The notes beneath the pieces are model-generated. The model had not been told where the DNA came from, made no database searches, and saw only the letters and a list, made by a program, of their open reading frames with translations. DNA of 64,000 nucleotides from the NCBI GenBank assembly GCA_036563785.1, contig DATCLR010000120.1, positions 4,998 to 68,997 of the forward strand, read 5' to 3'. The stretch is from Burkholderiales bacterium. Lineage in GTDB: Bacteria; Pseudomonadota; Gammaproteobacteria; Acidiferrobacterales; Sulfurifustaceae. Position 1 is the first letter of the stretch. The number at the start of each line of letters is the position of its first letter. The position numbers were made by a program, and so were the translations under genes. This document shows, piece after piece, positions 30,265 through 61,978 of this stretch.

Positions 30265-30484
30265 GCGCCGCCGCGGCCCGCAACGTGATTGTCGTACGCG
30301 GCGCAGCACCTGTCGGCGGTAACGTCGCCGACGCGAGCGCGTCTGATGCGTTTCGAGCCGCCGATGAGCGGGACAGGGTACGGCGCAAGCGCCGCCGGAA
30401 AAGCGGCCGTCGGCTCCCGAGAATGCCCGTAGCCCATCGCATGGAACACCGCGCCTCGTGGGTCGAGGCGGCGTTCCTTGCGAT

Positions 30485-30498
30485 TTGATGCTCGTCAT
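30485..30498. promoter_or_regulatory. Weak FNR-like site (TTGAT-GCTC-GTCAT) overlapping a sigma70-like promoter upstream of pat
   Basis: Two mismatches to TTGAT-N4-ATCAA. Followed by TTGCAC (30498-30503), a 16-nt spacer and TATCAT (30520-30525), which places the site near -41 of a putative start. Confidence 0.3.
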
Positions 30499-30579
30499 TG
30501 CACCGCCCGGGGGGCGTCGTATCATCCGACATTACCGGCGCCCGGCCTCCGGCGTCCGGCAAGGAAACAAGGCAACAAC

Positions 30580-33258
30580 ATGGGTCCACATTTCCTCGAA
30601 CGGCTGTTCGCGCCGAAGTCGGTCGCGGTTTTCGGGGCCTCCGAGCGCGAGAATTCGGTCGGCGGCCGGGTGTTCGAAAATCTGCTCGCCGGCGGCTTCG
30701 AAGGCGAGATCTATCCGATCAATCCGAAGTACGAAACGCTCCGCGGACGGCGCTGCTATCCGGATCTCGGGCGCGTCGGCGCGCCCGTCGACGTCGCGGT
30801 GATCGCGACCCCGGCGGCGACCGTGCCGGGCATCTTGCAGCAGTGCGGCGAGCACCGCGTGCGCGCCGCCGTGATCCATTCGGCCGGCTTCGCGGAGGCC
30901 GGCGCGCACGGCCGCGAGCTCGAGCGCGAAGTGCTGTCGCTCGCGCAGCGTTTCCGCATCCGCGTCCTCGGACCGAACTGCCTCGGCCTGATGCGCCCGA
31001 GCGCGCGCTTCAACGCCACGTTCAGCAAGAGCGCCGCGCGGGCGGGGCCGCTGGCGCTGATCTCCCAGTCCGGCGCGCTGTGCACCGCGATCCTCGACTG
31101 GGCGGAGACGCGCGGGGTTGGTTTCTCCGCCGTGGTTTCGCTCGGCGAGGCCGCCGACATCGACTTCGGCGATCTGCTCGACTATTTCGCGCTCGACGAG
31201 CAGACGCGCAGCATCCTGCTGTATATCGAGGGCATACGCGACGCGCGCGCGTTCATGAGCGGGCTGCGCATCGCGGCGCGCTTCAAGCCGGTAGTCGTCA
31301 TCAAGGCGGGGCGCCACGCGGAAGGCTCGCGCGTGGCGCTGTCGCACACCGGGGCTCTCGTCGGCAGCGACGACGTGTTCGACGCGGCCCTCATGCGTGC
31401 GGGTGCCGTGCGCGCCACCTCGGTCGATCAGCTCTTCGCCGCCGCGCAGCTCCTCGCCGCGCAGCATCGGGTGCGCGGCAACCGGCTCGCGATGGTGACG
31501 AACGCGGGCGGCCCCGCGGTGCTCGCGACCGACCGGGCGGCGGATCTCGGTGTGGCCCTGCCGGCGCTCGCGCCGGCGACGATGGCGGCGCTCGACGCCG
31601 CGCTGCCGGCGCACTGGTCGCACGGCAATCCCGTCGACGTGCTCGGCGATGCGGGCCCCGAGCGCTACACGCTCGCGCTCGATGCCTGCCTCAAGGATCC
31701 CAACGTCGACGGCGTGCTCGTGATGCTGACGCCGCAGGCCATGACCGATCCGATGGCGGTCGCCGAGGCCGTGATCCGGCAGCCGAAGCCCGCCGGCAAG
31801 CTCGTCCTCACGTCGTGGATGGGCGGGTCGAGGGTGCAGGCGGCGCGCGACCGCTTCGCGGCGGCGGGGATTCCTTCGTTCCCGAGCCCCGAGCGCGCGG
31901 TCGAGGCGTTCGCCTACCTCGCGACCTATCAGCGCAACCAGGAGCTGCTGCGGCAGGTGCCGGGCCCGCTCGATCCCCGGCGCGAAGCCGACATCGAGGG
32001 CGCACGGCTGATCGTCGAGACCGCGCTCGCCGAGGGTCGGCGCGTGCTCACGGGGATCGAGGCCTACGCGCTGCTCAGCGCGTTCCGCATTCCGCACGTG
32101 AGCGTGGTGCCGGCGCGCAGCGCCTCGGAAGCGCTCGTCGCCGCGCAAACGCTCGGCTTTCCCGTCGCGCTCAAGATTCTCTCGCCGGACATCGTGCACA
32201 AGTCCGACGTCAACGGTGTGCGGTTGAACGTCGGCAGCGCGCAGGCGGTGCGCAGCGTCTACAACGAGCTGATCGAATCGGTGAAGCGCCAGCGCCCCGA
32301 AGCGCGCATCGAGGGCGTCACGGTCGAGCGCATGTACCGGCGGCGCGACGGGCGGGAGCTGCACGTCGGCGTCGCGCGGGACCAGGTGTTCGGCCCGGTG
32401 GTGAGCTTCGGGCTCGGCGGCACGGCGATCGAGGTGCTGCGCGACCGCGCCATCGCGCTGCCGCCCCTGAACACGCTGATCGCGCAGAACCTGATCAGGC
32501 GCACGCGCGCGGGTCAGCTGCTCGGCGCGTTTCGCCATCTCCCGCCCGCGCGCATCGCCGCCGTCGAGCAGGTGCTGCTCGCAGTCTCGGAGATGGTGTG
32601 CGAGCTGCCCGAGATCATTTCGCTCGACATCAATCCGCTGATGGCGGACGCGGACGGGGTCACCGCGCTCGACGCGCGCTTCGAGATCGGGGAGCCGGGT
32701 CCCGGAGCCAAGCGGTATGCGCACATGGCGATTCATCCCTATCCGAGCCATCTCGTGTCGCACATGCAGCTCGCCGACGGCACCGACATTCTGCTGCGCC
32801 CCATCCGGCCGGAAGACGCCGAGCTCGAAGCGGCGTTCGTGCACAACCTCTCGCCGCAGTCGAAGTACATGCGCTTCATGCAGACGCTGCAGGAGCTGAC
32901 GCCCGAGATGCTGGTGCGCTTCACGCAGATCGACTACGACCGCGAGCTCGCGCTGGTGGCGATCACGGAGCAGGACGGACGGGAGGTGGAAGTGGCCGTG
33001 ACGCGCTACAGCATGAATCCCGACGGCGAGAGCTGCGAGTTCGCGCTCGTGGTGGCGGACGCCTGGCAGCGCAAGGGAATCGGCTCGCGGATGCTCTCGG
33101 TGCTCATGGATGCGGCGCGGGCGCGCGGCATTCGGGTGATGGAAGGCCAGGTGCTGGCGGAGAACACCGCGATGCTCTCGCTCGTGCGTCGCTTCGGTTT
33201 CCGCGTACGGCGCTCGCCGGGGAACCCGGGCGTATACGACGTGAGCCGGGAGCTCTAG
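30580..33258 (+). CDS. pat: Protein lysine acetyltransferase Pat (ADP-forming acyl-CoA synthetase-like domains + C-terminal GNAT)
   Basis: About 892 aa. LFAPKSVAVFGAS CoA-binding N-terminus, ATP-grasp region, and C-terminal GNAT (QRKGIGSRML). ATG at 30580 inside the listed ORF. Confidence 0.85.
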   Translation: MGPHFLERLFAPKSVAVFGASERENSVGGRVFENLLAGGFEGEIYPINPKYETLRGRRCYPDLGRVGAPVDVAVIATPAATVPGILQQCGEHRVRAAVIHSAGFAEAGAHGRELEREVLSLAQRFRIRVLGPNCLGLMRPSARFNATFSKSAARAGPLALISQSGALCTAILDWAETRGVGFSAVVSLGEAADIDFGDLLDYFALDEQTRSILLYIEGIRDARAFMSGLRIAARFKPVVVIKAGRHAEGSRVALSHTGALVGSDDVFDAALMRAGAVRATSVDQLFAAAQLLAAQHRVRGNRLAMVTNAGGPAVLATDRAADLGVALPALAPATMAALDAALPAHWSHGNPVDVLGDAGPERYTLALDACLKDPNVDGVLVMLTPQAMTDPMAVAEAVIRQPKPAGKLVLTSWMGGSRVQAARDRFAAAGIPSFPSPERAVEAFAYLATYQRNQELLRQVPGPLDPRREADIEGARLIVETALAEGRRVLTGIEAYALLSAFRIPHVSVVPARSASEALVAAQTLGFPVALKILSPDIVHKSDVNGVRLNVGSAQAVRSVYNELIESVKRQRPEARIEGVTVERMYRRRDGRELHVGVARDQVFGPVVSFGLGGTAIEVLRDRAIALPPLNTLIAQNLIRRTRAGQLLGAFRHLPPARIAAVEQVLLAVSEMVCELPEIISLDINPLMADADGVTALDARFEIGEPGPGAKRYAHMAIHPYPSHLVSHMQLADGTDILLRPIRPEDAELEAAFVHNLSPQSKYMRFMQTLQELTPEMLVRFTQIDYDRELALVAITEQDGREVEVAVTRYSMNPDGESCEFALVVADAWQRKGIGSRMLSVLMDAARARGIRVMEGQVLAENTAMLSLVRRFGFRVRRSPGNPGVYDVSREL

Positions 33259-37122: not shown

Positions 37123-38250
37123 CTAGCGCCAGTCGAGCTCGACCAGCCCATCGGCGGCGAAGCGCGCCGAAGTGCCCAGTGCACGGCCTTCGTGCACGAG
37201 CACGGCGCGCAGCCATTCGGCGTCGCGTGAACGTGCACGGTTTACGCGCAGACGCCGCACCTGTATCGGCGCGAGCCGCAGGCGCAGCAGCCGTCCGCTC
37301 GCGGCGTCGAGCGTCGGGAAGTACATGAACGAGAGATCGCCGCGATATGCCTCGTATCCGCGAATGCCTTCGTAGTCGGTGAGGAAATCGCCGCAGCCGT
37401 AGAGAATCAGCCGATCGCGATATACCTCGATCCCCTTGACGTGGTGCGACGAGTGCCCGTGGATGAGATCGATTCTTGCGGTGTCGATGAGGCCATGAGC
37501 GAACGCGCGCTCGTCGGGAGTGATCCCGTAGCCCCAGTTGGCACCCCAGTGCACTGACGCGATTGCGACGTCCCCGCGGCGCTTATGGCGTTGCACCGCT
37601 TCCGCGATGGTCTGAACGCTTCGCGCGGAGAGGTCGTGCAGGAGGCGGATGCCGGCGCGGTTGCGCCCGGCGGCCCACGCGGCGGGCACGCCGCTGCTTG
37701 CGTGAGCGAAGGCGAAGACGAGGACGCGCCAGGATCCGGCCGGCAGCACGGCGGGAGCCGCGGCTTCGGCCGCATCGCGGCCGGCGCCGGCCGTACGGAT
37801 GCCGGCGGCGTGCAGAACGGAGAGGGTGTCGCACAGGCCTTCGTGGCCCCAGTCGAGCACGTGATTGTTCGCGAGCGCACAGCAGTCGATGCCGCCGACG
37901 ACCAGGCAGCCGACGTTGTCGGGGTGCATGCGATAGTGGATGCCCTTGCTCGGCCACGCGGCTTCCGACACCGTGACGGCGGTTTCGAGGTTGACCACGC
38001 GCGCATGCGGGCGCAGCCGCCCGAGCGCGTCGAGCGCCTCTCCCCAGACGTAGCGGTCGTCGACGCGGCGCGGCAGCTGGCCGACCGCGGCCTCGGCGAG
38101 GTGAACGTATTCGCGCGCATCGCGCGCCGCGGGCTCGTAGAGGTGCGGCGCGCTCGGATGGCGCAGGATCTGGTCGACGCCGCGGCCGGTCATCACGTCG
38201 CCGCAAAGGAACAGCGTCAGCTCCGGATCGGATCGCGTCTCGGACGGCAT
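37123..38250 (-). CDS. CapA-family (PGA_cap metallophosphatase-fold) protein
   Basis: ATG at 38250 with GGAGG SD. LFLCGDVMTGRGVD, ANNHVLDWG and IHGHSSHH motifs. The upstream part of listed ORF 37123..38994 is discarded. Confidence 0.85.
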   Translation of the reverse strand: MPSETRSDPELTLFLCGDVMTGRGVDQILRHPSAPHLYEPAARDAREYVHLAEAAVGQLPRRVDDRYVWGEALDALGRLRPHARVVNLETAVTVSEAAWPSKGIHYRMHPDNVGCLVVGGIDCCALANNHVLDWGHEGLCDTLSVLHAAGIRTAGAGRDAAEAAAPAVLPAGSWRVLVFAFAHASSGVPAAWAAGRNRAGIRLLHDLSARSVQTIAEAVQRHKRRGDVAIASVHWGANWGYGITPDERAFAHGLIDTARIDLIHGHSSHHVKGIEVYRDRLILYGCGDFLTDYEGIRGYEAYRGDLSFMYFPTLDAASGRLLRLRLAPIQVRRLRVNRARSRDAEWLRAVLVHEGRALGTSARFAADGLVELDWR

Positions 38251-38270
38251 CGTCACCTCCGTGCTCGGTG

Positions 38271-38289
38271 GGCGAACGCGGCGTTCGCC
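38271..38289. promoter_or_regulatory. Perfect 9-1-9 palindrome GGCGAACGC-g-GCGTTCGCC in the capA / acidic-ORF divergent region
   Basis: Read directly from the sequence, 21-39 nt upstream of the capA ATG. Candidate operator or leader hairpin. Confidence 0.35.
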
Positions 38290-38352
38290 TAAACGTTCGA
38301 CGGCGCGGCCGATCAAAGATTGAAGCACACGACGCAAAGGAGCGCAGAGGCC

Positions 38353-38757
38353 ATGGCGATCGAAGAGCGGCCGATCGTGAATCAGTGGTACCGGCACCTC
38401 GACAAGGGCTACCGCTTCCAGGTAACCGCTGTCGATGAGAAGGCGGGCGCCGTCGAGATCCGGCATTTCGGCGGCGACACCGACGAGCTCGATCTCGACC
38501 AGTGGCCCGATCTCGACATCGAGCCCACCGAGCCGCCTGAGGATTGGCCCGAGCCGATGGACGAGACCGAACGCGAAGAACTCGGCTACGGAGAGGTGGA
38601 CATGAGGCCCGAGAGCTGGGGCGAGTCGCTCGTCGAGGAAGCGGAGCACCCTTACGAAGGAGGCGAGGAGGAAGAAGAGGGGGAGGAAGTGGGCCCGGCC
38701 TGGCTGGAACCCGAGGAAGGCGGAACGCCCGAAGAGGAAGAAGAGGAAGAGGAGTAA
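38353..38757 (+). CDS. Highly acidic hypothetical protein with poly-Glu C-terminus
   Basis: MAIEERPIVNQWYRHLDKGYRFQVTAVDE... ending GGEEEEEGEE...TPEEEEEEEE. AAGGAG 10 nt before the ATG at 38353. Confidence 0.5.
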   Translation: MAIEERPIVNQWYRHLDKGYRFQVTAVDEKAGAVEIRHFGGDTDELDLDQWPDLDIEPTEPPEDWPEPMDETEREELGYGEVDMRPESWGESLVEEAEHPYEGGEEEEEGEEVGPAWLEPEEGGTPEEEEEEEE

Positions 38758-39077
38758 GCGCACGGCCCGACGGCGAGGCCGGCGGCGATGGTGTTCCTCT
38801 GGGTGCTCGCCGTCTTCGCATCCGCGGCGAACGGAATGGAGCGCGGTCACTCTCGGCGCGGCCGCCTTCGGCCAGGAGACGCCGGCGCTGCTCGCGCGCG
38901 GCGGCGCTGCGTGCGCACGGAGACTGGGCACGCCGCCCGTACGTCTTCTTGCAGGCGACGGCGCCCGGGCTCGATACTCTCGTCGTCGGCGCATTCGACG
39001 ACGAGGCGGTGCACGGGACGGCGCGGCTGCCGCGCGATCGAGCGGCGCTGTACCTCATGCCCGCCGGGCACCGTCGT

Positions 39078-39091
39078 TTGACTTGCATCAA
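39078..39091. promoter_or_regulatory. FNR/Anr-type box TTGAC-TTGC-ATCAA
   Basis: One mismatch to consensus. Centre about 145 nt upstream of the Lon-like protease ATG, inside a 472-nt non-coding gap. Confidence 0.55.
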
Positions 39092-39229
39092 GACGGCGCA
39101 ATGCGGTTGCTCTAGCGTTGCGCCGGTGGGACATCCCGGGGAGAGACACGCGTTATGAGGGCTACTGTCGGCATCATCGCGGCGGCTGCGCGCGGGCGCG
39201 CGGCCCGCGCGGGCTAGGGCGGATCGCGC

Positions 39230-41653
39230 ATGGACGGAACGCCGCAGACACCGAGCGCTCTGCCGCCCGAAGCGCTGTACCGGCGTGTCGAGACCGCCGC
39301 TTGGGCGTTTCGAACCACCGACGATCTCGAGGACCTGGCCGAAGTGATCGGCCAGGCGCGCGCCACCGAAGCGATTCGCTTCGGCGTCGGCATGGACGGC
39401 GACGGCTACAACCTGTACGTGCTGTCGCCGCCGGGCACCGGCGGCCACGCCGTCGTGCGCGAGCTGCTGCAGGAGCGCGCGCGGCACGAGCCGGTGCCGA
39501 GCGACTGGTGCTACGTCAACAACTTCGAGCACCCGCACCGCCCGCGCGTGCTGCGTCTGCCTGCCGGTCTGGGGACGAAGCTGCGCGACGACATGCGGGA
39601 GCTCATCACGGACCTCGAGGGCGCGATTCGGGCGGCGTTCGAGAGCGACGAGTACCGCGCCCGCCGGCACGAGCTCGAGCAGAGCATGAAGGAGCGCCAC
39701 GAGCAGGCGTTCGGGGAGCTCGGGCGCCGCGCCGCGGAGCAGAGCATCATCCTCATGCGCACGCCGACCGGCATGGCGTTCGCGCCGACGCGCGACGGCG
39801 AGGTCATGACGCCGGGCGAGTTCGAGAAACTTCCGGCGGAGGAGCAGCAGCGCATCACCGACGCGATCGGAGGGCTGCAGGAGGAGCTGCGGCGCATCCT
39901 GGAGCAGATTCCGCAGTGGCAGCGCGAAGCGCAGCAGCGGATCCGTGCGCTCGACCGCGAGGTGGTGCACGCGGCGGTCCGGCACCAGATCGCCGCGATC
40001 AAGCAGAAGTACAGCGCGCTGCCCGCGGTGCTCGAGTACCTCGACGCGGTCGAAGCTTCCGTGATCGAGCACGCCGACGACTTCCGCGTGGAGGACGGCG
40101 CCGAGTGGCGGCCATTCGGCTTCGTGGCGTCGGCGCGCGAAGCGCTGCGGCGGCGCTACGGCGTAAACGTGCTGATCGACAACGGGAGCACCGAGGGTGC
40201 GCCCATCGTTTACGCAGACAATCCGACGTATCCCGAGCTGATCGGCCGCATCGAGCACCTGGCGCAGATGGGTGCGCTGGTCACCGACTTCATGCTGATC
40301 AAGCCGGGCGCGCTGCATCGCGCCAACGGCGGCTATCTGGTGATCGATGCGCGGCGCGTGCTGATGCAGCCGTACGCGTGGGAAGGGCTCAAGCGCTGCC
40401 TCGCCTCGAACGAGATCCGCGTCGAGTCGCTCGGGCAGATGCTGTCGCTCATCAGCACCGTGTCGCTCGAGCCCGAGCCCATACCGCTCGACGTCAAGGT
40501 GGTCCTCGTCGGGGAGCGCCTCCTCTATTACCTGCTCTACAACCTCGATCCCGACTTCCGCGAGCTGTTCAAGGTGGCTGCGGATTTCGAAGAGGACATG
40601 GACCGCAGCCCCGAGACGCAGCGGCTCTACGCGCGGCTCGTCGCGACGCTGGTGCGGCGCCATCGACTGCGGCCGTTCGATCGCGACGCCGTGGCGCGCG
40701 TGCTCGAGCACGGCGCGCGGCTCGCGGGCGACGCCGAGAAGCTTTCGATCCGCACCCAGGAAATCGCCGACCTGCTGCGCGAGGCGGACTACTGGGCGCG
40801 CGAGGAGGGCTGCGACACCGTGGCGCGCGGGCACGTGCAGCGGGCGATCGCGGCGCGCCTGCGCCGCAGCGACCGCGTGCGCACGCGGATACAGGAAGAG
40901 ATCCGGCGCGGCACGCTGCTCATCGACACCGCGGGGCGCCGGCTCGGCCAGGTGAACGGCTTGTCCGTGGTGCGGCTGGGGGACGCCGAGTTCGGCTACC
41001 CGACGCGCATCAGCGCGCGCGTGCGCCTCGGCAAGGGCGAGGTCATCGACATCCAGCGCGAGGTGGACCTCGGCGGACCGATTCACTCGAAAGGGGTCCT
41101 GATCCTCGCCGGATTCTTCGGTGCGCGCTATCTGCCCGACCGGCCGCTCGCGCTCGCGGCCACGCTCGTGTTCGAGCAGACCTACGGTCCCGTCGACGGC
41201 GATTCGGCCTCCTGCGCCGAGCTGTGCGCCCTGGTGTCGGCGCTCGCCGACGTTCCCCTGCGCCAGGATCTCGCGATCACCGGTTCGGTGAACCAGTACG
41301 GCGAGGTGCAGGCGATCGGCGGCGTGAACGAGAAGATCGAGGGCTTCTTCGACACCTGCAACGCGCGCGGGCTGACGGGCGAACAGGGAGTCATCATTCC
41401 CGCGGCCAACGTGAAGCACCTCATGTTGCGCGAGGACGTGGTCGCCGCCTGCAGCGAGGGCCGCTTTGCGGTCTATCCGGTGACGAACGTCGACGAGGCC
41501 TTCGAGCTCCTGACCGGTCTGCCGGCCGGGACGCGCGGCGACGACGGCCAGTTCCCCGCGGACAGCGTGAACGGCCGCGTCGAGGAGAAGCTCCGGCGGC
41601 TCGCGGAGCAGGCGCACGAATTCGCGCGCGGCGAGGAGCGGGCGCGGTCGTGA
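39230..41653 (+). CDS. LonC-like (Lon-family, AAA_32-type) protease
   Basis: 807 aa. N-terminal AAA-like region with a non-canonical P-loop (LSPPGTGGHAV, no GK[ST]). Long helical insertion. C-terminal Lon protease domain with Ser-Lys dyad context (VDGDSASCAE; GGVNEKIEGF). Confidence 0.85.
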   Translation: MDGTPQTPSALPPEALYRRVETAAWAFRTTDDLEDLAEVIGQARATEAIRFGVGMDGDGYNLYVLSPPGTGGHAVVRELLQERARHEPVPSDWCYVNNFEHPHRPRVLRLPAGLGTKLRDDMRELITDLEGAIRAAFESDEYRARRHELEQSMKERHEQAFGELGRRAAEQSIILMRTPTGMAFAPTRDGEVMTPGEFEKLPAEEQQRITDAIGGLQEELRRILEQIPQWQREAQQRIRALDREVVHAAVRHQIAAIKQKYSALPAVLEYLDAVEASVIEHADDFRVEDGAEWRPFGFVASAREALRRRYGVNVLIDNGSTEGAPIVYADNPTYPELIGRIEHLAQMGALVTDFMLIKPGALHRANGGYLVIDARRVLMQPYAWEGLKRCLASNEIRVESLGQMLSLISTVSLEPEPIPLDVKVVLVGERLLYYLLYNLDPDFRELFKVAADFEEDMDRSPETQRLYARLVATLVRRHRLRPFDRDAVARVLEHGARLAGDAEKLSIRTQEIADLLREADYWAREEGCDTVARGHVQRAIAARLRRSDRVRTRIQEEIRRGTLLIDTAGRRLGQVNGLSVVRLGDAEFGYPTRISARVRLGKGEVIDIQREVDLGGPIHSKGVLILAGFFGARYLPDRPLALAATLVFEQTYGPVDGDSASCAELCALVSALADVPLRQDLAITGSVNQYGEVQAIGGVNEKIEGFFDTCNARGLTGEQGVIIPAANVKHLMLREDVVAACSEGRFAVYPVTNVDEAFELLTGLPAGTRGDDGQFPADSVNGRVEEKLRRLAEQAHEFARGEERARS

Positions 41654-42489
41654 GCGGGCGCGCGCAACCGGCGATCCGCCGCATCCTGGTGGCGCTCGAC
41701 GCTTCCACCGGAAGCGTGGGAGCGCTGCGCGCCGCGGCGGCGGTCGCGGCCGCGGCGTCGGCGGAGCTCGCGGCGCTGTACGTGGAAGACGTGAACCTGC
41801 TGCATCTCGCGGCGCTGCCGTTCGCGAGCGAGGTCGATCCGATCTCCGGACGGGCGCGGCCGCTGCAGCGCGAAGGCATGGAGCGGCTGCTGCGTGCGCA
41901 GGGTCTGCGGGCGCAGCAGGCGTTCGTCCAGGCGACCGCACACCTGCGCGCGAGCTGCAGCTTTCGCGTGACGCGGGGGAGGATCGTGCCGGCGCTGCTG
42001 CAGGCGGCGCTCGAGGCCGACCTCGTCGCTCTGGGGGCGATCGGGAGCGTTTCGGCGGCGCGCGGCGGGCTCGGTTCGATCGCCCGTGCGGTGATCGCCG
42101 AAACCGAGCGGCCGGTCCTGATCCTGCCGCACGGCGCGGCGCTGCGGCCGCCGATCGCGGTGGTCGTCGACGCCGCGAGCGGCGCGGGCGACGCGCTCGC
42201 GTTCGGCGCGCACCTCGGCGGATACTTTCCTTCGTCGGAGCTCGTCGTATTGCTGATCGCGGCCGGTCCGAAGCAGGCGCAGGCGCTGCGGGACGCCGCG
42301 GAAGCCGTCCTCGCCGGGACGGAGGCCCGTTACCGCGCCGTCGACGCCGCCGACGTCGACACGCTCGGCCGCGCGCTGCGGGCCGAGCGCGTCGGGACGC
42401 TGGTGCTGTCGCGCACGAGCCCCTCTCTCTCCGTCGAATCCCTCGGTGAGCTGCTCGGACGCACGAACGTAGCCGTGCTGCTAGTCTGA
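41650..42489 (+). CDS. Tandem universal-stress-protein-like (USP) domain protein
   Basis: GTG at 41650 overlaps the lon stop (GTGA). RRILVALDAS... The first domain keeps G-x2-G-x9-GS (GAIGSVSAARGGLGS). The second domain (IAVVVDAASG...) is degenerate. Confidence 0.6.
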   Translation: MSGRAQPAIRRILVALDASTGSVGALRAAAAVAAAASAELAALYVEDVNLLHLAALPFASEVDPISGRARPLQREGMERLLRAQGLRAQQAFVQATAHLRASCSFRVTRGRIVPALLQAALEADLVALGAIGSVSAARGGLGSIARAVIAETERPVLILPHGAALRPPIAVVVDAASGAGDALAFGAHLGGYFPSSELVVLLIAAGPKQAQALRDAAEAVLAGTEARYRAVDAADVDTLGRALRAERVGTLVLSRTSPSLSVESLGELLGRTNVAVLLV

Positions 42490-42609
42490 TCCGGCGCACC
42501 GGTTTGCACCTCGAGGCCGCCGCGCGCGGGCGAGCGCGCGGTTGACGCCGCGGTGCGGGCGCTGCACGATCCTGACGGTGCGACGGCATAACGGCAGGGA
42601 GGGCGGCCC

Positions 42610-43758
42610 ATGCAGGTGATGCCCGACTATCGCGGCGGCAGCATCGTCAATCTCATGTCCTCGATCGTGCACGCGCTCGGCGGCGAAGAACCGCTCTACG
42701 CGCCGCTCGCTGCGCTCCCGCCCGCCGAGCTCGCGAGCCGCAACGTGGTGCTGCTGGTCGTGGACGGTCTCGGCTACGAGTACCTGCAGTCGCGCAAACC
42801 CGAGGGCGCGCTCGCGCGGCGCCTGCGTGCGCGCATCACGTCGGTGTTTCCCTCGACGACGGCGAGCGCGGTCACGACTTTTCTCACGGGGACGGCGCCG
42901 CAGCAACACGGTCTTACCGGGTGGTTCATGTACTTCGCGGAGCTCGGCGGCGTCATGGCCATATTGCCGTACCGTCCGCGGCACGGCGGCTCCGCTCCGC
43001 GCCTCCCGGTCGGGACGCTCCTGGAGCACGTGCCGGTGTTCGATCGGCTCGATGCGCGCGCGCACATGGTCGCGCCCGCGCGCATCGCACAGTCCGACTT
43101 CAATCTCGCGCACCGCGGCCGGGCGGCGCTCGAGGCGTTCAGGACGCTCGACGAGATGTTCCAGGCGATCGAGCGCATCGTGCGCGTGGCGAGCGGGCGG
43201 ACGTATGTGTACGCCTACTGGCCGGAGCTCGACCGGCTCGCGCACGAGTGCGGCGTCGGAAGCCGCGAGGTCGGCGAGCATCTGGACGCGATCGATACGG
43301 CGTTCGATGCGTTCCTCGGGCGCATCGCCGGCAGCGACACGACCGTCGTCGTGACCGCCGACCACGGTTTCGTCGACGCGGCGCCCGAGGAGGCGATCGA
43401 GCTCGCGGCGCATCCGGCGCTCGCCCGCACGCTGCTCCTGCCGCCGTGCGGCGAGCAGCGCGCGGCGTACTGCTACGTCCGGGCGCGGCAGGAGCGCGCG
43501 TTCGCCGATTACGTCGCGCGCTTCGCCGACCGGGTGGAGCTGCACGAAGCGGAGGCGCTCGTCGCGGCGGGCGTCTTCGGCCTCGGTGCGCCGCACCCGC
43601 GGCTCCACGAGCGGGTCGGCGACTACGTGCTGATCATGAAGCAGAACGCCGTGATCAAGGCATGGCTCTCCGGCGAGCCGCAGTTCGAGCACATCGGCGT
43701 GCACGGCAGCACGAGCCCGGAGGAGATGTACGTGCCGCTGATCGTGGCGCAGGTTTGA
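42610..43758 (+). CDS. Alkaline-phosphatase-superfamily protein (type I phosphodiesterase/nucleotide pyrophosphatase-like), cytoplasmic
   Basis: 382 aa. VVDGLGYEYL and FPSTTASAVTTFLTG (metal Asp / nucleophile Thr context), TADHGF. No signal peptide. GGAGGG SD. Confidence 0.7.
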   Translation: MQVMPDYRGGSIVNLMSSIVHALGGEEPLYAPLAALPPAELASRNVVLLVVDGLGYEYLQSRKPEGALARRLRARITSVFPSTTASAVTTFLTGTAPQQHGLTGWFMYFAELGGVMAILPYRPRHGGSAPRLPVGTLLEHVPVFDRLDARAHMVAPARIAQSDFNLAHRGRAALEAFRTLDEMFQAIERIVRVASGRTYVYAYWPELDRLAHECGVGSREVGEHLDAIDTAFDAFLGRIAGSDTTVVVTADHGFVDAAPEEAIELAAHPALARTLLLPPCGEQRAAYCYVRARQERAFADYVARFADRVELHEAEALVAAGVFGLGAPHPRLHERVGDYVLIMKQNAVIKAWLSGEPQFEHIGVHGSTSPEEMYVPLIVAQV

Positions 43759-43978
43759 GCGCGCCGGCGGGGCACTGTCGCTCGAACCCGGCTCCGGGTC
43801 GCCCGCCGCCGGTTCGGGCATCCGCTGCCTTGACAAACCGTCGGCCGGGGCCGAGCGTTAATCGGTAGGGGCAGGGAAATCCCGGACCCGCCGCTCCGGC
43901 CGGGGCTATAGTGTCCCTGAACAACAACAAGGCGCTGTACGGCCGCCGCGCCGGCACCGCACCCGAAGGGAGAGGTTC

Positions 43979-44215
43979 ATGTCCACGAAGCCCGATTCGC
44001 AGAAAGTGCTGGACGAAGCCCTGCAGCTCGACCCGACCGCGCGCGCGTTCATTGCCGAGACGCTGCTCGAAAGTCTCGAGCTCGAGCACGATTTTCCGGT
44101 GCCGGAAGAATGGCGGGAGCAGGTGCGCCGCCGCTGCCTCGAGATCGATAACGGGCGCACCGGCATGTTCGACGACGCAGCCGTGCTGAACGAGCTGCGC
44201 GCGAAATACGCTTGA
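43979..44215 (+). CDS. Addiction-module antitoxin (TIGR02574-like component)
   Basis: 78 aa, VLDEALQLDPTARAFIAETLLESL... Overlaps the downstream toxin gene by 4 nt. Confidence 0.75.
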   Translation: MSTKPDSQKVLDEALQLDPTARAFIAETLLESLELEHDFPVPEEWREQVRRRCLEIDNGRTGMFDDAAVLNELRAKYA

Positions 44216-44517
44216 TCGACGTTCGCTGGCACCGCGCCGCGCGGGCGGAAGCCGCCGCGGCGGCCGCCTTCTACCGGAGCAAGCGCCCCGGGCTCGTCGA
44301 GCATCTGCTGCAGAATCTCGAAGAAGCGCTGCGCCGGCTGCAGCGGCGGCCGCGCGCCTATCCGCGTGTCGAGGCGAACGTGCACAAGTGCCGCGTGCCG
44401 CATTTTCCCTACGGCATCCTCTATCGCGTCCGCGAAGCCGAGTTCGAGGAGCCGCGCATCGAAATCCTCGCCCTGATGCACCTGCGCCGCCCGCCGGCGG
44501 ACGGCAAGTCCGACTGA
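44212..44517 (+). CDS. RelE/ParE-family toxin
   Basis: 101 aa, ...FPYGILYRVREAEFEEPRIEILALMHLRRPP typical of the ParE/RelE C-terminus. Confidence 0.75.
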   Translation: MIDVRWHRAARAEAAAAAAFYRSKRPGLVEHLLQNLEEALRRLQRRPRAYPRVEANVHKCRVPHFPYGILYRVREAEFEEPRIEILALMHLRRPPADGKSD

Positions 44518-44559
44518 GAATTGCGGCGCGTCGCGCCGTCGTCGGCGGGGCCGCGGAGG

Positions 44560-45138
44560 TTACTTCTCTTTCGCTGCGGGTCCGCGTTCGCGCACCTTGT
44601 CGGCGGGCGCCGGCGTCTCTTCCGCAGACCGCGGCGGCGCCGGCGCGAAGCCGCCGAGGGCGCTCGCTTCGCCGCGCCACGCTTCACCCCAGCCGGTAGG
44701 CGCGTTCGGCAGGGCATAGATGCGCGGACCGTACACGCTTCGCGCGGCATCCAGATCCGCGGCCCGATCGACGGCGGCGGCCGGTGGCTGTTCGGGGACT
44801 TCGTCCGAGACGATCGGCTTGCCGATCTCGCCGCGGCCCGCGCTCATGATCTCGGCCGCTTTCTGTGCCGCGGCGTCGTCGCGGGCGTGCAGCGCGAGCA
44901 CCGCTTTTCCGCCACGCACGGCGCGCGCATAGTGCTCCGTGTCATCGTCGATGAGCCAGCCGCTGAACATGCGCTGCACGACGCCCGCGATGCCGGTCAG
45001 CTCCGCATGCGGCGGCGGGGCGCCGTCGCCGCCTTCGATGCGTATCTGCTCGCGACCGAAGCCGTTCTCCAGGAGCCGCCGGCATGCGGCTTCCGCATAC
45101 GCCCGGGATTCGTAGATCGCTACCACCAGTCTTGCCAT
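44560..45138 (-). CDS. Hypothetical protein (N-terminus resembles YflT/general-stress-protein-type domain)
   Basis: 192 aa, MARLVVAIYESRAYAEAACRRLLENGF... The family assignment is only a weak recollection. Confidence 0.4.
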   Translation of the reverse strand: MARLVVAIYESRAYAEAACRRLLENGFGREQIRIEGGDGAPPPHAELTGIAGVVQRMFSGWLIDDDTEHYARAVRGGKAVLALHARDDAAAQKAAEIMSAGRGEIGKPIVSDEVPEQPPAAAVDRAADLDAARSVYGPRIYALPNAPTGWGEAWRGEASALGGFAPAPPRSAEETPAPADKVRERGPAAKEK

Positions 45139-57172: not shown

Positions 57173-58210
57173 ATGCGCATGCGAGAGATCGACGGTTCCT
57201 ACGGCGAAGGCGGCGGGCAGCTGCTGCGCCTGGCGTGCGCGCTCGGCGCGATCACGGGCGAAGCGGTGCGGGTGCGGAACGTCCGGGCGCGCCGGCGGCC
57301 GCCCGGGCTCGCCGCACAGCATGCGGCGGCGGTGCGGGCGGTGGCGCTGCTTTGCGGCGGGGAAGTGGAGGGCGCCGAGGTCGGATCGGCCGATGTGATC
57401 TTCCGGCCGGGCGCGCGCCGCGGCGGCGAGTTCACGATAGACGTCGGCACCGCGGGCAGCGTCATGCTCGTGCTGCAGGCGCTCCTGCCGCTCGCGGTCA
57501 CCGCGCCCGCGCCGACGGAGCTGCGGCTCATCGGCGGCACCGACATTCGCGCCGCACCGCCCGCCGATTACGTCCGCTTCGTGCTGCTGCCGCTCCTCAC
57601 GGCGATGGGCGCACGGGTGGAGCTCGCGCTCGTGCGGCGCGGCTATTATCCGCGCGGCGCCGGCGAGGTCGTGGTGCGGGTGCAGCCGGGGCCGTTGTCG
57701 GCGCTCGTGCGCGAAGCCGCCGGGAAGCCGGAGCGCATCGAGGGCGCGGTGCACACGGCGCATCTCCCCGCTCACGTCGCGGAGCGCATGGAGCGGCGAG
57801 CGGTCGAGTTGCTGCGCGATGTCGCGCCGGTGCGGCTGACGCGACAGGAGGTCGATGCCGGCTTGGCATTCGGCCCGGGCGGCGGCATCGCCCTCTGGAC
57901 GGCGGGCGCGCCGTCGCTGCTCGGCGCCGCCGAGGTGGCGCAGCGCGGCGTTCCGGCCGAGCAGATCGCCGAGACCGCCGCATGCACGCTGCGGGGCGAT
58001 CTGGAGGCGGGCGCCACGCTCGACATCCACGCCTCCGATCAGGTACTGATTTACGCGAGCCTCGCGCGCGGGCGATCCTGCTTCATCGCGCGGGCGCTCA
58101 CCTCGCACGCGGCCACGGCGTTGTGGCTGCTGCAGCAGTTCCTGCCGCTCGACGTGCGCACGGCGCCGGCGGGAAACGGCATACGCGTCGAGATCGAGCC
58201 GCGTGCGTAA
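57173..58210 (+). CDS. rtcA: RNA 3'-terminal phosphate cyclase
   Basis: IDGSYGEGGGQLLR N-terminus, and an RRPPGLAAQH motif carrying the candidate adenylylated His. 345 aa. Confidence 0.85.
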   Translation: MRMREIDGSYGEGGGQLLRLACALGAITGEAVRVRNVRARRRPPGLAAQHAAAVRAVALLCGGEVEGAEVGSADVIFRPGARRGGEFTIDVGTAGSVMLVLQALLPLAVTAPAPTELRLIGGTDIRAAPPADYVRFVLLPLLTAMGARVELALVRRGYYPRGAGEVVVRVQPGPLSALVREAAGKPERIEGAVHTAHLPAHVAERMERRAVELLRDVAPVRLTRQEVDAGLAFGPGGGIALWTAGAPSLLGAAEVAQRGVPAEQIAETAACTLRGDLEAGATLDIHASDQVLIYASLARGRSCFIARALTSHAATALWLLQQFLPLDVRTAPAGNGIRVEIEPRA

Positions 58211-58254
58211 TGAACCGGCACCGGCACCCGGTGTACGTCACTGCCTAAGGAGGA

Positions 58255-58938
58255 ATGAGCATGTCGAGAGCGCAGGCAGCCGGAGACGGTCGAGGCACCT
58301 ACGCGCGCCCCTCGCCCGAGGAACGGCGGCGCATGATCGCGGAAGCGGCTTATTACAAGGCGCTCAACCGCGGCTTCCAGGGCGGTGATCCGGTCGAGGA
58401 CTGGCTGGCCGCCGAGCGTGAGATCGACGCGATGTTCCCGAATCCCGAGCAGCAGCGCGAGGAAGCAGACCTCTACGAGAAGCTGCGCGCTGCGCTCAAG
58501 GACCTGCTCGCCGAAGCGCAGGCCGTGAACGCGGACACGCTGCGTCAGGCGTTCGAGCGGGCGACGGCCGACCTCAAGCGCACCGGACGCTACACGGCGG
58601 AGACGATCGCCAAGGTGGCCGCGTCGCTGCGCAAGGACATTGCGAGCACGGCGGTGAAGCTCGGACCGCGCTGGGAGGATCTGTCGCGCCGCGGCGGCGA
58701 TCTGTTCGAGGTGTGGCGCGACCGCGGCGCGATATTTCTGTCGCAGGCGGCGACGGCGGTCGGCGAATGGCTGCGGCAGACGGGCACCCGATTCGGCCAG
58801 CAGACCTACCGCGCGGGCGAGATGGTGTACAAGGGCGCGTTCGAGTGTACCGCGTGCGGCGAGCGCCTGACGTTGCCGGAATCCGCGCACCTGCCGCCGT
58901 GCCCGCGCTGCCAGGCGCTCGAGTACCGGCGTCACTGA
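58255..58938 (+). CDS. DUF2934-motif protein with C-terminal CxxC...CxxC zinc ribbon
   Basis: EERRRMIAEAAYYKALNRGFQGGDPVEDWLAAEREI has 29 of 36 residues identical to the ORF at 34811..35086. C-terminus is FECTACGERLTL...PPCPRCQALEY. Confidence 0.55.
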   Translation: MSMSRAQAAGDGRGTYARPSPEERRRMIAEAAYYKALNRGFQGGDPVEDWLAAEREIDAMFPNPEQQREEADLYEKLRAALKDLLAEAQAVNADTLRQAFERATADLKRTGRYTAETIAKVAASLRKDIASTAVKLGPRWEDLSRRGGDLFEVWRDRGAIFLSQAATAVGEWLRQTGTRFGQQTYRAGEMVYKGAFECTACGERLTLPESAHLPPCPRCQALEYRRH

Positions 58939-59077: not shown

Positions 59078-60880
59078 TCAGTCCGCCTCGCGCTCCGGCA
59101 CGCAGCAGAGCCGCGCGGCCTCCGGTGCGGCCTCGAGCACGCCGCCGGTGATGGTGTTCGGCCGGTAGGTGGTGCAGCCCTTCAATCCCTGCGCGTAGGC
59201 GTAGCGGTAGATGTCCTTGAATTCCTCGAACGGGAAATCCGCCGGCACGTTGATCGTCTTCGAGATCGAGCTGTCGACGTACGGCTGCAGCGCCGCCTGC
59301 ATATCGAGGTGCGCGGCCGGCGGCAGCTCCTGCGCGCTCACGAACGCGCGCGGGAGCGGCTCGTCGCCGCGCAGCGCGCGCCAGCGCTCGAGCGCGTAGT
59401 CGGTGAGCTCGTACTCGCGCGTGCTGCCGTCGAGCTCGAGCACGCGGCGGCGGTAGCGGAACGCGTACACCGGCTCGATGCCGCTCGAGACGTTGTTCGC
59501 GAGCAGGCTTATCGTGCCGGTCGGTGCGATCGCCGTCAGGTGGCTGTTGCGGATGCCGTAGTTCCTGATCCCTTCCTGGATGTCCTCGGGCAGCCGACGG
59601 ACGAACTCGCCCGCGAGATAGCGCTCGTGCTCGAAGAAGGGGAACGGGCCCTTTTCGCGCGCGAGCGCGATCGAGCAGCGGTAGGCTTCGTGGCACACGG
59701 TGCGCATGACGCGCGCCGCGAGCTCGCGGGCCGGCGGCTCGCCGTAGTGCAGCCCGAGCATGAGGAGCGCATCGGCGAGGCCGGTGAGGCCGAGACCGAT
59801 GCGCCGCGCGCCGTTCGCCATTTCCGCCTGGCGCTCGAGCGGGAAGCGCGAAACGTCGATGACGTTGTCCATCATGCGCACCGCGATGCGCGCCGTCGCG
59901 GCGATGCCGTCGAGATCGAGCGAGGCTTTCTCGGTGAACGGATCGCGCACGAACGCGACGAGATTGATCGAGCCGAGGTCGCAGGCGCCGTAGGGCGGAA
60001 GCGGCAGCTCGCCGCACGGGTTCGTCGCGCTGATGTGCTCCCGATACCAGAGGTTGTTGAGCCGGTTGATGCGATCGACGAAGAGCACGCCCGGCTCGGC
60101 GTATTCGTAGGTCGCGCGCATGAGCTTTTCCCAGAGCGCGCGCGCCCGCACGCGCCGATAGACGCGGCAGGGCACCGGCGCGAGCGCGCCGGACCAGCGG
60201 CGCATCACGATTTCGCCTTCGTCGGCGCGCGCGGGGAACACGAGCGGCCACTCCGCATCGGCCTCGACCGCCTGCATGAACTCGTCGGTCACGAGCACCG
60301 ACAGGTTGAAGTTCCGCAGCTCCCCGGGCGTCTGCTTCGCCGCGATGAAGGTCTCGATATCGGGGTGATCGCAGCGCAGCGTCGCCATCATGGCGCCGCG
60401 GCGCGCGCCGGTGGACAGCAGCGTCGCGCACATCGCGTCCCAGATACGCATGAACGATACCGGTCCGGAGGCGACGCCGCCGACCGCGCGGGCCGGCGCC
60501 CCGCGCGGACGCAGGGTCGAGAAGTCGTAGCCGACGCCGCCGCCCTGCTGCATGGTGAGGGCGCCCTCCTTGAGACCGTCGAAGATGCCGTCCATGGAGT
60601 CCTCGATCGTGCCCATGACGAAGCAATTGAAAAGCGTCACGCGCCGCCCCGTTCCCGCGCCGGCCTGAATGCGCCCGCCGGGCAGGAAACGGAATCCGGC
60701 GAGGGCCTCGTAGAAACGCTCCACCCAGGACGGATCCTTCTCCGGCGCGGCCAAGGCACGCGCGATGCGGCGCCACGTGTCCTCGATGGTCGCCTCGAGC
60801 GGCCCTTGCTCTGTCCGGAAGCGGTACTTGGTGTCCCAGATGTGGTACGCGATCGGAGTCGTGAACGGCGCGGTGGTCAT
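59078..60880 (-). CDS. nrdJ: Class II (adenosylcobalamin-dependent) ribonucleotide reductase
   Basis: ATG at 60880 inside the listed ORF. ATNPCGELPLPPYGACDLGSINL active-site region and C-terminal KGCTTYRPN. Confidence 0.9.
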   Translation of the reverse strand: MTTAPFTTPIAYHIWDTKYRFRTEQGPLEATIEDTWRRIARALAAPEKDPSWVERFYEALAGFRFLPGGRIQAGAGTGRRVTLFNCFVMGTIEDSMDGIFDGLKEGALTMQQGGGVGYDFSTLRPRGAPARAVGGVASGPVSFMRIWDAMCATLLSTGARRGAMMATLRCDHPDIETFIAAKQTPGELRNFNLSVLVTDEFMQAVEADAEWPLVFPARADEGEIVMRRWSGALAPVPCRVYRRVRARALWEKLMRATYEYAEPGVLFVDRINRLNNLWYREHISATNPCGELPLPPYGACDLGSINLVAFVRDPFTEKASLDLDGIAATARIAVRMMDNVIDVSRFPLERQAEMANGARRIGLGLTGLADALLMLGLHYGEPPARELAARVMRTVCHEAYRCSIALAREKGPFPFFEHERYLAGEFVRRLPEDIQEGIRNYGIRNSHLTAIAPTGTISLLANNVSSGIEPVYAFRYRRRVLELDGSTREYELTDYALERWRALRGDEPLPRAFVSAQELPPAAHLDMQAALQPYVDSSISKTINVPADFPFEEFKDIYRYAYAQGLKGCTTYRPNTITGGVLEAAPEAARLCCVPEREAD

Positions 60881-60947
60881 CGCTGGTTCCTTCGGACGAC
60901 AGCTAACAGCATAACCAAGCGTGCCCGGCACGTCTCGCGGCAAGCGG

Positions 60948-60961
60948 TTGATTTGGATCAA
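60948..60961. promoter_or_regulatory. Perfect FNR/Anr box TTGAT-TTGG-ATCAA between divergent nrdJ and usp
   Basis: Exact consensus palindrome. Centre about 74 nt from the nrdJ ATG and about 96 nt from the usp ATG. Confidence 0.7.
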
Positions 60962-61050
60962 AGCGGCGCCGCCGCAGTAAGGTAGCCTCTTTTTTCGAGG
61001 GCATTTCTGGGTGAGGATTGCGGGACAACGACGAAACCGCGGAGCAGATA

Positions 61051-61494
61051 ATGTACAAGAACCTGTTGATCGCCACCGATGGATCGCCTAGGTCCCGCAA
61101 GATGGTGCAGGAGGGAGTGAAGCTCGCGAAGGCGCTCGATGCCCGGGTCGTCGGGGTGCACGTCTACCCCGCGCATTTCGGCCTCACGTACGGGAAGGTG
61201 GGTGTCATCGATGCGCGCACGCAGGTGCGGTTGCGTGCAATCGCGCGCAAGGAAGGAGAGCGTTATCTCGAACAAGTGCGCCAGGCGGCAGAGCGCGCCG
61301 GCGTTCCCTGCGAGACGGCGCTGCTCGAGCACGATCAGGTCTGGAAGGCGATCATCGACACTGCGCGCAAGCGCCGCTGCGACTTGATTCTCATGGCGGC
61401 GCACAGCCGCGGGCCGCTGGCCCGGCTGGTGCTCGGGAGCGAGACGAACAAGGTGCTGATGAACTCGAAGATCCCGGTGCTGGTGTACCGCTGA
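61051..61494 (+). CDS. Universal stress protein (UspA family)
   Basis: MYKNLLIATDGSPRS..., C-terminal LVLGSETNKVLMNSKIPVLVYR. Confidence 0.85.
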   Translation: MYKNLLIATDGSPRSRKMVQEGVKLAKALDARVVGVHVYPAHFGLTYGKVGVIDARTQVRLRAIARKEGERYLEQVRQAAERAGVPCETALLEHDQVWKAIIDTARKRRCDLILMAAHSRGPLARLVLGSETNKVLMNSKIPVLVYR

Positions 61495-61528: not shown

Positions 61529-61978
61529 GTGCGCATGTTCAAGAACATCCTGATTCCGACCGACGGTTCCGAGATGTCCGAAGACGCGGCGCGCAAGGGG
61601 GCGGCGCTCGCCAAGCTGCACGGTGCACGCATCGTCGGCGTGCACGTGTTCCCGGTGAGCCTCGGCATTTACTACGGCGAGGCCGTGTGGGTGGACGAGA
61701 CCATGCGTACCCAGATGCAGGAAGCCGCGGCGGCCGAAGGGCGCAAGTACCTCGACAAGCTGGAAGAGATCGTGCGCGCCGAGGGGGTGCCGTTCGAGCG
61801 CGTGCTGATCGAGGGCGACAGCCCGTGGCAGGGGATCGTCGAAACCGCCGACCGCAAGGGCTGCGATCTCATCGTGATGGCGGCGCACGGCCGGCGGGGC
61901 ATCGCGGCGGTGCTGCTGGGAAGCGAAACCAACCGGGTGCTGACGCACACCAAGATACCCGTGCTGGTCTACCGGTGA
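61529..61978 (+). CDS. Universal stress protein (UspA family)
   Basis: MFKNILIPTDGSEMS..., AAHGRRGIAAVLLGSETNRVLTHTKIPVLVYR. The start is either 61529 or 61535. Confidence 0.85.
   Translation: MRMFKNILIPTDGSEMSEDAARKGAALAKLHGARIVGVHVFPVSLGIYYGEAVWVDETMRTQMQEAAAAEGRKYLDKLEEIVRAEGVPFERVLIEGDSPWQGIVETADRKGCDLIVMAAHGRRGIAAVLLGSETNRVLTHTKIPVLVYR

Follow-up and report, generated by a model that had tools for sequence, protein, structure and literature searches.

A conserved, translationally coupled gene pair of a LonC-family protease and a tandem universal stress protein, behind an FNR-type box in a Burkholderiales contig

In a 64,000-nt stretch of a Burkholderiales bacterium contig (the window, to whose positions all coordinates refer), the gene of a LonC-family Lon-like serine protease, lonC, is directly followed and overlapped by usp, the gene of a tandem-type universal stress protein (USP). 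We consider it fairly probable that lonC and usp form a two-gene operon with a class-II FNR/Anr-type promoter and that the USP acts as a regulatory or adaptor subunit of LonC. The protease family is already known; the part that we did not find described is the LonC-USP pair itself, conserved and translationally coupled across phyla. Three open reading frames (ORFs) of 807, 279, and 382 amino acids lie on the same strand of the locus:

39230..41653, + strand: lonC, 807-aa LonC-family Lon-like serine protease (Pfam, alignment to MtaLonC, >8000 homologues)
41650..42489, + strand: usp, tandem-type USP partner, 279 aa, GTG start (Pfam Usp, AlphaFold2 fold, conserved position after lonC)
42610..43758, + strand: gene of the PF01663 alkaline-phosphatase superfamily, 382 aa (Pfam, E = 1e-24)

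The lonC stop codon TGA (41651-41653) and the usp start codon GTG (41650-41652) overlap in the tetranucleotide GTGA, and GAGGAG, ~14 nt before the usp start, resembles a Shine-Dalgarno site. The gap between usp and the phosphatase-family gene is 120 nt, and lonC is preceded by a 472-nt gap in which none of the ORFs passes the coding test based on third-position GC (GC3); the GC3 of the 807-aa and 382-aa ORFs is 0.91-0.92. The coordinates, codons, overlap, gaps, and motifs that a first-pass annotation of this DNA had given were all re-found at their positions.

To place the pair among its relatives, we surveyed 80 loci of LonC relatives (50-62% identity, one genome per species) from the Chloroflexota, Acidobacteriota, Chlorobiota, Bacteroidota/Rhodothermota, Planctomycetota, Deinococcota, Latescibacterota, Bradymonadales, and several proteobacterial classes, 74 of which had enough downstream sequence. 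A same-strand USP homologue lies immediately downstream of lonC in 44 of the 74 loci by tblastn, and a hidden Markov model (HMM) of the partner added four, giving ~48/74. The distance from the lonC stop to the usp start peaks at -4 nt (ATGA or GTGA, 20/44), and 40 of the 44 distances fall between -29 and +9 nt. The first-pass annotation had singled out the Lon-USP adjacency and the overlap of the lonC stop with the start of a two-domain USP gene in this DNA alone; both are present, and the survey shows that they are conserved in many phyla. The pair was also found in five loci of closer relatives (L081-L085, the last two with the same protein). In the reverse direction, all four USP homologues found by sequence on long contigs (33-47% identity) immediately follow a lonC gene, which they overlap by 4 or 8 nt, and all other neighbors of these four loci differ. 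All-against-all clustering of the neighbors yielded no third conserved gene, only generic families at variable positions. On a neighbor-joining Lon tree of 81 tips, the USP-linked state is spread over the whole tree and yet clustered, with 31 switches, a value matched by 0.7% of shuffles; such a pattern is consistent with a linkage that is old and was repeatedly lost or relocated. The pairing is not described in the literature that we searched, on USPs in combination with LonC or a Lon-like protease and on TTC1975 and TTHA0350, and it is probably visible in gene-neighborhood databases.

The Pfam Usp match spans only residues 9-160 of the 279-aa partner. The AlphaFold2 model (59 homologues; predicted local distance difference test score, pLDDT, 92; predicted template-modelling score, pTM, 0.89) contains two α/β domains, residues 11-159 and 169-278, and its top Foldseek matches are the tandem USPs TTHA0350 (TM 0.72-0.81) and Rv2623. 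Two segments of the protein bear on its possible role:

41779..41832, + strand: subfamily hallmark YVEDVNLLHLAALPFASE, with the invariant residues E46, D47, L50, and P57 (alignment of Lon-linked USPs)
42034..42078, + strand: G-x2-G-x9-GS ATP-binding-type motif GAIGSVSAARGGLGS, residues 129-143, USP domain 1 (sequence motif)

The most conserved block of the partners reads RILVALD.S...AEL.GLFVED..LLRLA.LPFA.E, and R11, G110, and D124 are, like the four hallmark residues, invariant across 59 partner sequences. The hallmark pattern [VIL]ED..L...P was found in 33 of 41 and in 57 of 59 Lon-linked USPs in two sequence sets, and it is not present in TTHA0350. In the model, the hallmark segment comes after strand 2 and comprises a helix of residues 48-54 plus a loop beside a folded strand, with a pLDDT of 92-97. 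A profile search of 1.84 billion representatives (clusters at 50% identity) returned at least 2,246 USP representatives at E ≤ 1e-30; the lengths of the best 150 range from 256 to 350 aa, and none of these is a fusion. The partners thus make up a tandem-USP subfamily of their own, ~280 aa long and marked by (V/L)ED..LL.LA.LPF, and USPs of this subfamily stand next to lonC in every context examined.

The first USP domain of the window protein retains G-x2-G-x9-GS, as the first-pass annotation had stated, and the motif check gave no such motif in the second half. This motif allows, without proving, nucleotide sensing by domain 1. The strict motif is kept in 10/41 and 16/59 Lon-linked USPs (~25%), so nucleotide gating cannot be the general mechanism. 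Since the subfamily conserves the ED..LL.LA.LPF block instead, the general mechanism is more likely to be a protein-protein contact than ATP binding. The suggestion that the USP supplies nucleotide sensing in trans is therefore weak: the part that stands is the intact motif of the window USP, and what speaks against it is the loss of the motif in most partners together with the roughly one third of lonC genes that have no adjacent USP gene.

By its sequence, the 807-aa protein is a clear and ordinary new member of the known LonC family. It contains the Pfam domains AAA_32, LonB_AAA-LID, LonC_helical (64 bits), and Lon_C, and the same four domains occur in all of its >8000 homologues. Its closest solved relative is MtaLonC (PDB 4fwd; E = 7e-90), which aligns with residues 39-770. 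The family-specific elements are as follows:

39425..39451, + strand: degenerate P-loop SPPGTGGHA, without GK[ST] (MtaLonC equivalent, GPPSLGKHE)
40328..40351, + strand: Walker-B-like GGYLVIDA, without the catalytic Glu (PMC3391209 gives GYLILDA for MtaLonC)
41204..41206, + strand: catalytic Ser codon TCG in PVDGDSASCAE (aligned to the MtaLonC active site)
41333..41335, + strand: catalytic Lys codon AAG in GGVNEKIEGFF (aligned to MtaLonC)
41357..41380, + strand: LonC-specific insertion CNARGLTG (CX3GLX[G/E]), residues 710-717 (motif defined in PMC3391209)

The Ser and Lys contexts (GDSAS and VNEKIEGF) thus lie at the codons where the first-pass annotation had placed them, and its assignment of a LonC-like protease is borne out by the four domains, the full-length MtaLonC match, and the CX3GLXG insertion. 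In LonC proteins, the CX3GLX(G/E) insertion follows the helix of the catalytic Lys (PMC3391209). At the second LonC insertion, helix α5 of the protease domain, the alignment with MtaLonC is ungapped, and the helical-hairpin insertion is reflected in the ~250 residues that separate the P-loop from AAA_32. No Pfam match to the N-domain of LonA or to the membrane anchor of LonB was obtained, and the maximal hydropathy is 1.40 (19-residue window). MtaLonC/TTC1975 (PDB 4fwd, 7euy, and 8k8v) has the same domain set, Ser-Lys dyad, and CX3GLXG insertion as the window protein, and both carry a Walker-A-like loop without Ser/Thr and a Walker-B-like GGYLxxDA without Glu; the window LonC is, however, ~75 aa longer, with alignment gaps in the region of the helical insertion. 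The protease domain with its Ser-Lys dyad is thus intact, and the AAA-like module is predicted to have neither a functional Walker A nor a functional Walker B. Characterized LonC members do not hydrolyze ATP; their helical insertion is implicated in substrate recognition, and there is no ATP-powered unfolding (PMC3391209 and PMC13069640).

The absence of GK[ST] at the P-loop, to which the first-pass annotation had drawn attention, is confirmed, but it is not special to this protein: nearly all LonC members carry the consensus GxPGTG[KR][HRQ], so the degenerate P-loop is a signature of the family, as is the Walker B without Glu. Canonical GKS[ST] was found in a few LonC relatives (L017, L031, L034, L056, and L080). 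What distinguishes the subclade of the window protein (P0001-P0009, 73-98% identity) is a Gly fixed in place of the Lys/Arg, giving SPPGTGG[HQ]. MtaLonC keeps the Lys, and its loop is reported to keep only phosphate binding (PMC13069640). Because the Lys/Arg is replaced by Gly, phosphate binding at the P-loop may be lost as well in the window clade. P-loops without the last Gly or without the Lys/Arg (GG, DK, DR, CR, and HR) occur in 8 of 47 USP-linked LonCs and in none of 28 unlinked ones.

The 472-nt non-coding region upstream of lonC contains a box of the FNR type, and the following elements enter the reading of the promoter:

39078..39091, unstranded: FNR/Anr-type palindromic box TTGACTTGCATCAA, centered 145 nt upstream of the lonC ATG (pattern search)
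39113..39118, + strand: -10-like hexamer TAGCGT, 21 nt after the box (layout common to the window, L081, L082, and L083)
33266, 34687, 36990, 39078, 46834, and 60948: FNR-type boxes of the window (TTGAYN4RTCAA search)

The box has one mismatch to TTGAT-N4-ATCAA. In L081, a 92%-identical Burkholderiales metagenome-assembled genome (MAG), 13 of its 14 bases are identical, and the conservation between the window and L081 begins at the box. Of 83 related loci, 13, all of them proteobacterial, have TTGA-N6-TCAA in the 450 nt before lonC, where ~0.6 would be expected from our base-composition estimate. The same layout of the box, a spacer of 21-22 nt, and a TAnnGT hexamer is shared by the window, L081, L082, and L083 (proximal box), and this spacing would fit the class-II position, in which the box center is near -41.5 relative to the transcription start. 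From this layout, we infer a class-II FNR/Anr promoter with a predicted transcription start near 39125. The upstream non-coding region and the FNR box of the first-pass annotation are thus real, and the box is kept in relatives with a class-II-like spacing to the -10 hexamer. The window has six matches to TTGAYN4RTCAA, where 0.04 would be expected, and none of 100 shuffles gave more than one. The genes behind the six boxes encode an LTXXQ protein, a PilZ protein, an AAA_33 kinase-like protein, LonC, a CMD-family protein, and a divergent ribonucleotide-reductase/USP pair, and the set looks like a low-oxygen regulon cluster. No gene of a Crp/FNR-family regulator was seen among the scanned ORFs of the window.

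In the proposed mechanism, scarcity of oxygen or energy would lead to the joint synthesis of LonC and the USP, and the USP would attach to the LonC ring in a regulatory or adaptor role. It would control when an energy-independent protease/holdase acts on unfolded or specific proteins and, in the window organism, might respond to an adenine nucleotide via its first domain. A more specific claim is possible, and we advance it tentatively: the hallmark USP would be physically bound to LonC in a complex and would serve as the subunit that senses a ligand or gates this protease/holdase. Several observations weigh against the operon with a USP subunit. About one third of the LonC loci have no USP gene within 8 kb, and the strict ATP motif is retained in only about a quarter of the partners. 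FNR boxes upstream of lonC are limited to proteobacterial relatives, so low-oxygen control would be lineage-specific; both the transcript structure and its start site are predictions. A search whose query fused Lon residues 560-807 to the USP returned no trustworthy natural Lon-USP fusion. Only P0254 and P0248 look fused; P0254 (L090, 3191-6490) is most likely an assembly frameshift artefact, because the same contig splits lonC and a ribonucleotide reductase gene each in two, and neither protein was given weight. Four TTHA0350-like metagenome loci showed no lonC in their short flanks (~1.5-5 kb upstream; for two of these loci, also up to ~2 kb downstream). Finally, the physical contact between Lon and the USP is itself a prediction.

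The simplest alternative is that LonC and the USP are merely co-expressed stress proteins that act independently, their adjacency reflecting shared regulation. USPs are common in low-oxygen regulons, two further USP genes of the window stand behind another FNR box, and the third of the LonC loci without a USP would be readily accommodated; this reading nevertheless leaves unexplained why phyla whose regulators differ greatly, and whose other neighboring genes are unrelated, keep a dedicated hallmark subfamily at one position, in one orientation, and with a 4-nt overlap, and we consider it unlikely. The USP could also be a dedicated substrate, pro-protein, or inhibitor of LonC, that is, a brake or a processed client, with ED..LL.LA.LPF as the recognition site. 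Such a role would suit a protease that cannot power unfolding with ATP and whose helical insertion is implicated in substrate recognition (PMC3391209 and PMC13069640), and the most conserved block of the partner is indeed a short segment after strand 2, not the nucleotide motif. That segment is, however, confidently modelled as a helix and a loop instead of a disordered tail, and we regard a substrate or inhibitor role as quite doubtful.

A further alternative extends the system to three components, with an alkaline phosphatase as the third and the USP supplying nucleotide sensing for a P-loop-dead Lon; the first-pass annotation had proposed such a Lon/USP/phosphatase module. In its favor, all three genes point the same way and no terminator-like site separates them; the 92%-identical relative retains the trio, and the window USP keeps G-x2-G-x9-GS. 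The module does not survive the survey: tblastn with the window protein found a phosphatase homologue in 0 of 80 LonC loci, the gene is missing in the 69-73%-identical relatives, and the ATP motif is lost in ~75% of the partners. The odd P-loops are exclusive to USP-linked LonCs, yet they account for just 8 of 47. We therefore hold a three-component system to be very improbable. The combination of a Lon-like protein and a phosphatase also recalls the Lon-like BrxL and the PglZ phosphatase of BREX, and a remnant or variant of this phage-defense system would be in line with PglZ matches of the phosphatase-family protein. These matches are below threshold (Pfam, 20.7 bits against a cutoff of 25; NCBIfam BREX_PglZ_4, 22.7 against 140), no PADLOC model matches the Lon, the USP, or the phosphatase, the protease is LonC and not BrxL, and no other BREX genes lie nearby. 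A BREX or other defense reading was accordingly rejected and is almost certainly wrong.

The phosphatase-family protein itself matches PF01663 (type I phosphodiesterase/NPP) with 88 bits (cutoff 23) over residues 46-367. The motifs VVDGLG, FPSTT, DRLAH, TADHG, and GVHG were assigned by eye as putative sites of the metal ligands and the Thr/Ser nucleophile, and sequence matches in the PDB cover residues 198-272 only. Its position 120 nt downstream and its lack of a signal peptide, both given by the first-pass annotation, were found again: the N-terminus is not hydrophobic (maximal Kyte-Doolittle value of 1.45 in a 19-residue window). The gene accompanies lonC-usp only in L081, where the same ParDE-like pair is present as well. 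As it is missing from the surveyed loci and from the 69-73%-identical relatives and is present only in L081, it is best read as a recent, lineage-specific neighbor and not as a component of the module. No terminator-like site was found in the 120-nt gap, and the gene may be co-transcribed with lonC-usp.

Compared with known systems, the preferred reading of a lonC-usp operon adds a partner to a protease family whose member MtaLonC has been studied by biochemistry, crystallography, and cryo-EM; the LonC papers PMC3391209 and PMC13069640 mention no operon partner and report no in vivo work. The tandem USP TTHA0350 of Thermus thermophilus HB8 (PDB 3ab7/3ab8) is the best sequence-profile match (E = 2.4e-24) and the best fold match of the window USP. 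TTHA0350 is reported to bind ATP in both domains and does not have the ED..LL.LA.LPF hallmark. That TTHA0350 adjoins the Thermus LonC is unsupported, given the four metagenome loci without lonC in their short flanks. Rv2623, a tandem USP of the dormancy regulon of M. tuberculosis, shares the tandem USP fold and a hypoxia-linked expression, with ~20% identity to the window USP; PMC5549992 gives an ABC transporter, not a protease, as its interaction partner. The Anr regulon of P. aeruginosa and the lxa locus of Burkholderia cenocepacia, like the window, have a cluster of TTGA-N6-TCAA boxes before USP genes and further genes of the stress response. The lxa locus is induced at low oxygen, and its motif reads TGA-N6-TCA. 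Searching the lxa paper for Lon as a whole word gave no match in its text, and the only protein-turnover entry there is an FtsH-type Zn protease, whereas the window box precedes lonC-usp.

The conserved, coupled pair offers a concrete experimental entry for both the LonC and the USP fields. According to a 2013 structural review, the precise biological functions of USPs are still unknown; the complex, if true, would tell what a large USP subfamily, with at least 2,000 clusters at 50% identity, does at the molecular level. It would also give LonC a physiological control mechanism, a point not addressed in PMC3391209 and PMC13069640. A class of proteases that does not hydrolyze ATP would be useful under energy limitation, and in the window organism and other Proteobacteria, the pair appears to be wired into an FNR-type low-oxygen response.

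Several further observations concern the surroundings of the pair. A 20-codon upstream ORF, MRATVGIIAAAARGRAARAG, lies in the lonC leader (39156-39218) and overlaps a GC-rich, hairpin-prone stretch; it was discarded as a candidate, being kept only in L081 (with an in-frame 3-nt indel) and not in L082 or L083. A 1668-aa ORF (37583-42589, - strand) runs opposite lonC-usp; this and similar long antisense ORFs fail the GC3/GC2 test and are artefacts of the 70% GC content. An Rfam scan of the whole window gave no matches, and a scan of 38200-44600 gave no terminator-like or sigma-70-like sites. Between the AAA_33 gene and lonC lie the genes of a PGA_cap protein (CapA-like, - strand) and a DUF6763 protein with a poly-Glu tail (37123-38757). 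Because both are missing at the same place in L081, they appear to be a recent insertion or rearrangement, which ends just upstream of the FNR box. Directly after the phosphatase-family gene, a ParDE-type toxin-antitoxin pair (Unstab_antitox and ParE_toxin, 4-nt overlap) occupies 43979-44517; L081 has this pair, too. Just downstream of lonC-usp in L082-L085, the relatives with 69-73% identity, a DUF2267 gene is convergent to usp, and DUF2267 recurs only in the closest proteobacterial relatives. Genes for HSP20, a ribosome hibernation factor, FtsH, DUF883/YqjK, and a YbaK-like tRNA_edit protein lie around the pair in these relatives, and the surroundings may therefore be stress or dormancy islands.

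Elsewhere in the window, two single-domain USP genes stand in tandem (61018-61494 and 61529-61978) behind the box at 60948, beside a ribonucleotide reductase gene (59078-60961, - strand). An RNA 3'-phosphate cyclase (RtcA) gene followed by the gene of a DUF2934 and DUF1451 zinc-ribbon protein occupies 57173-58938; neither RtcB nor RtcR was seen among the scanned ORFs of the window. At 30478-33258, a 926-aa fusion joins an ADP-forming acyl-CoA synthetase (CoA_binding, Succ_CoA_lig, and ATP-grasp_5) to a C-terminal GNAT acetyltransferase; the fusion resembles the architecture of a protein-lysine acetyltransferase and is shared with L081.

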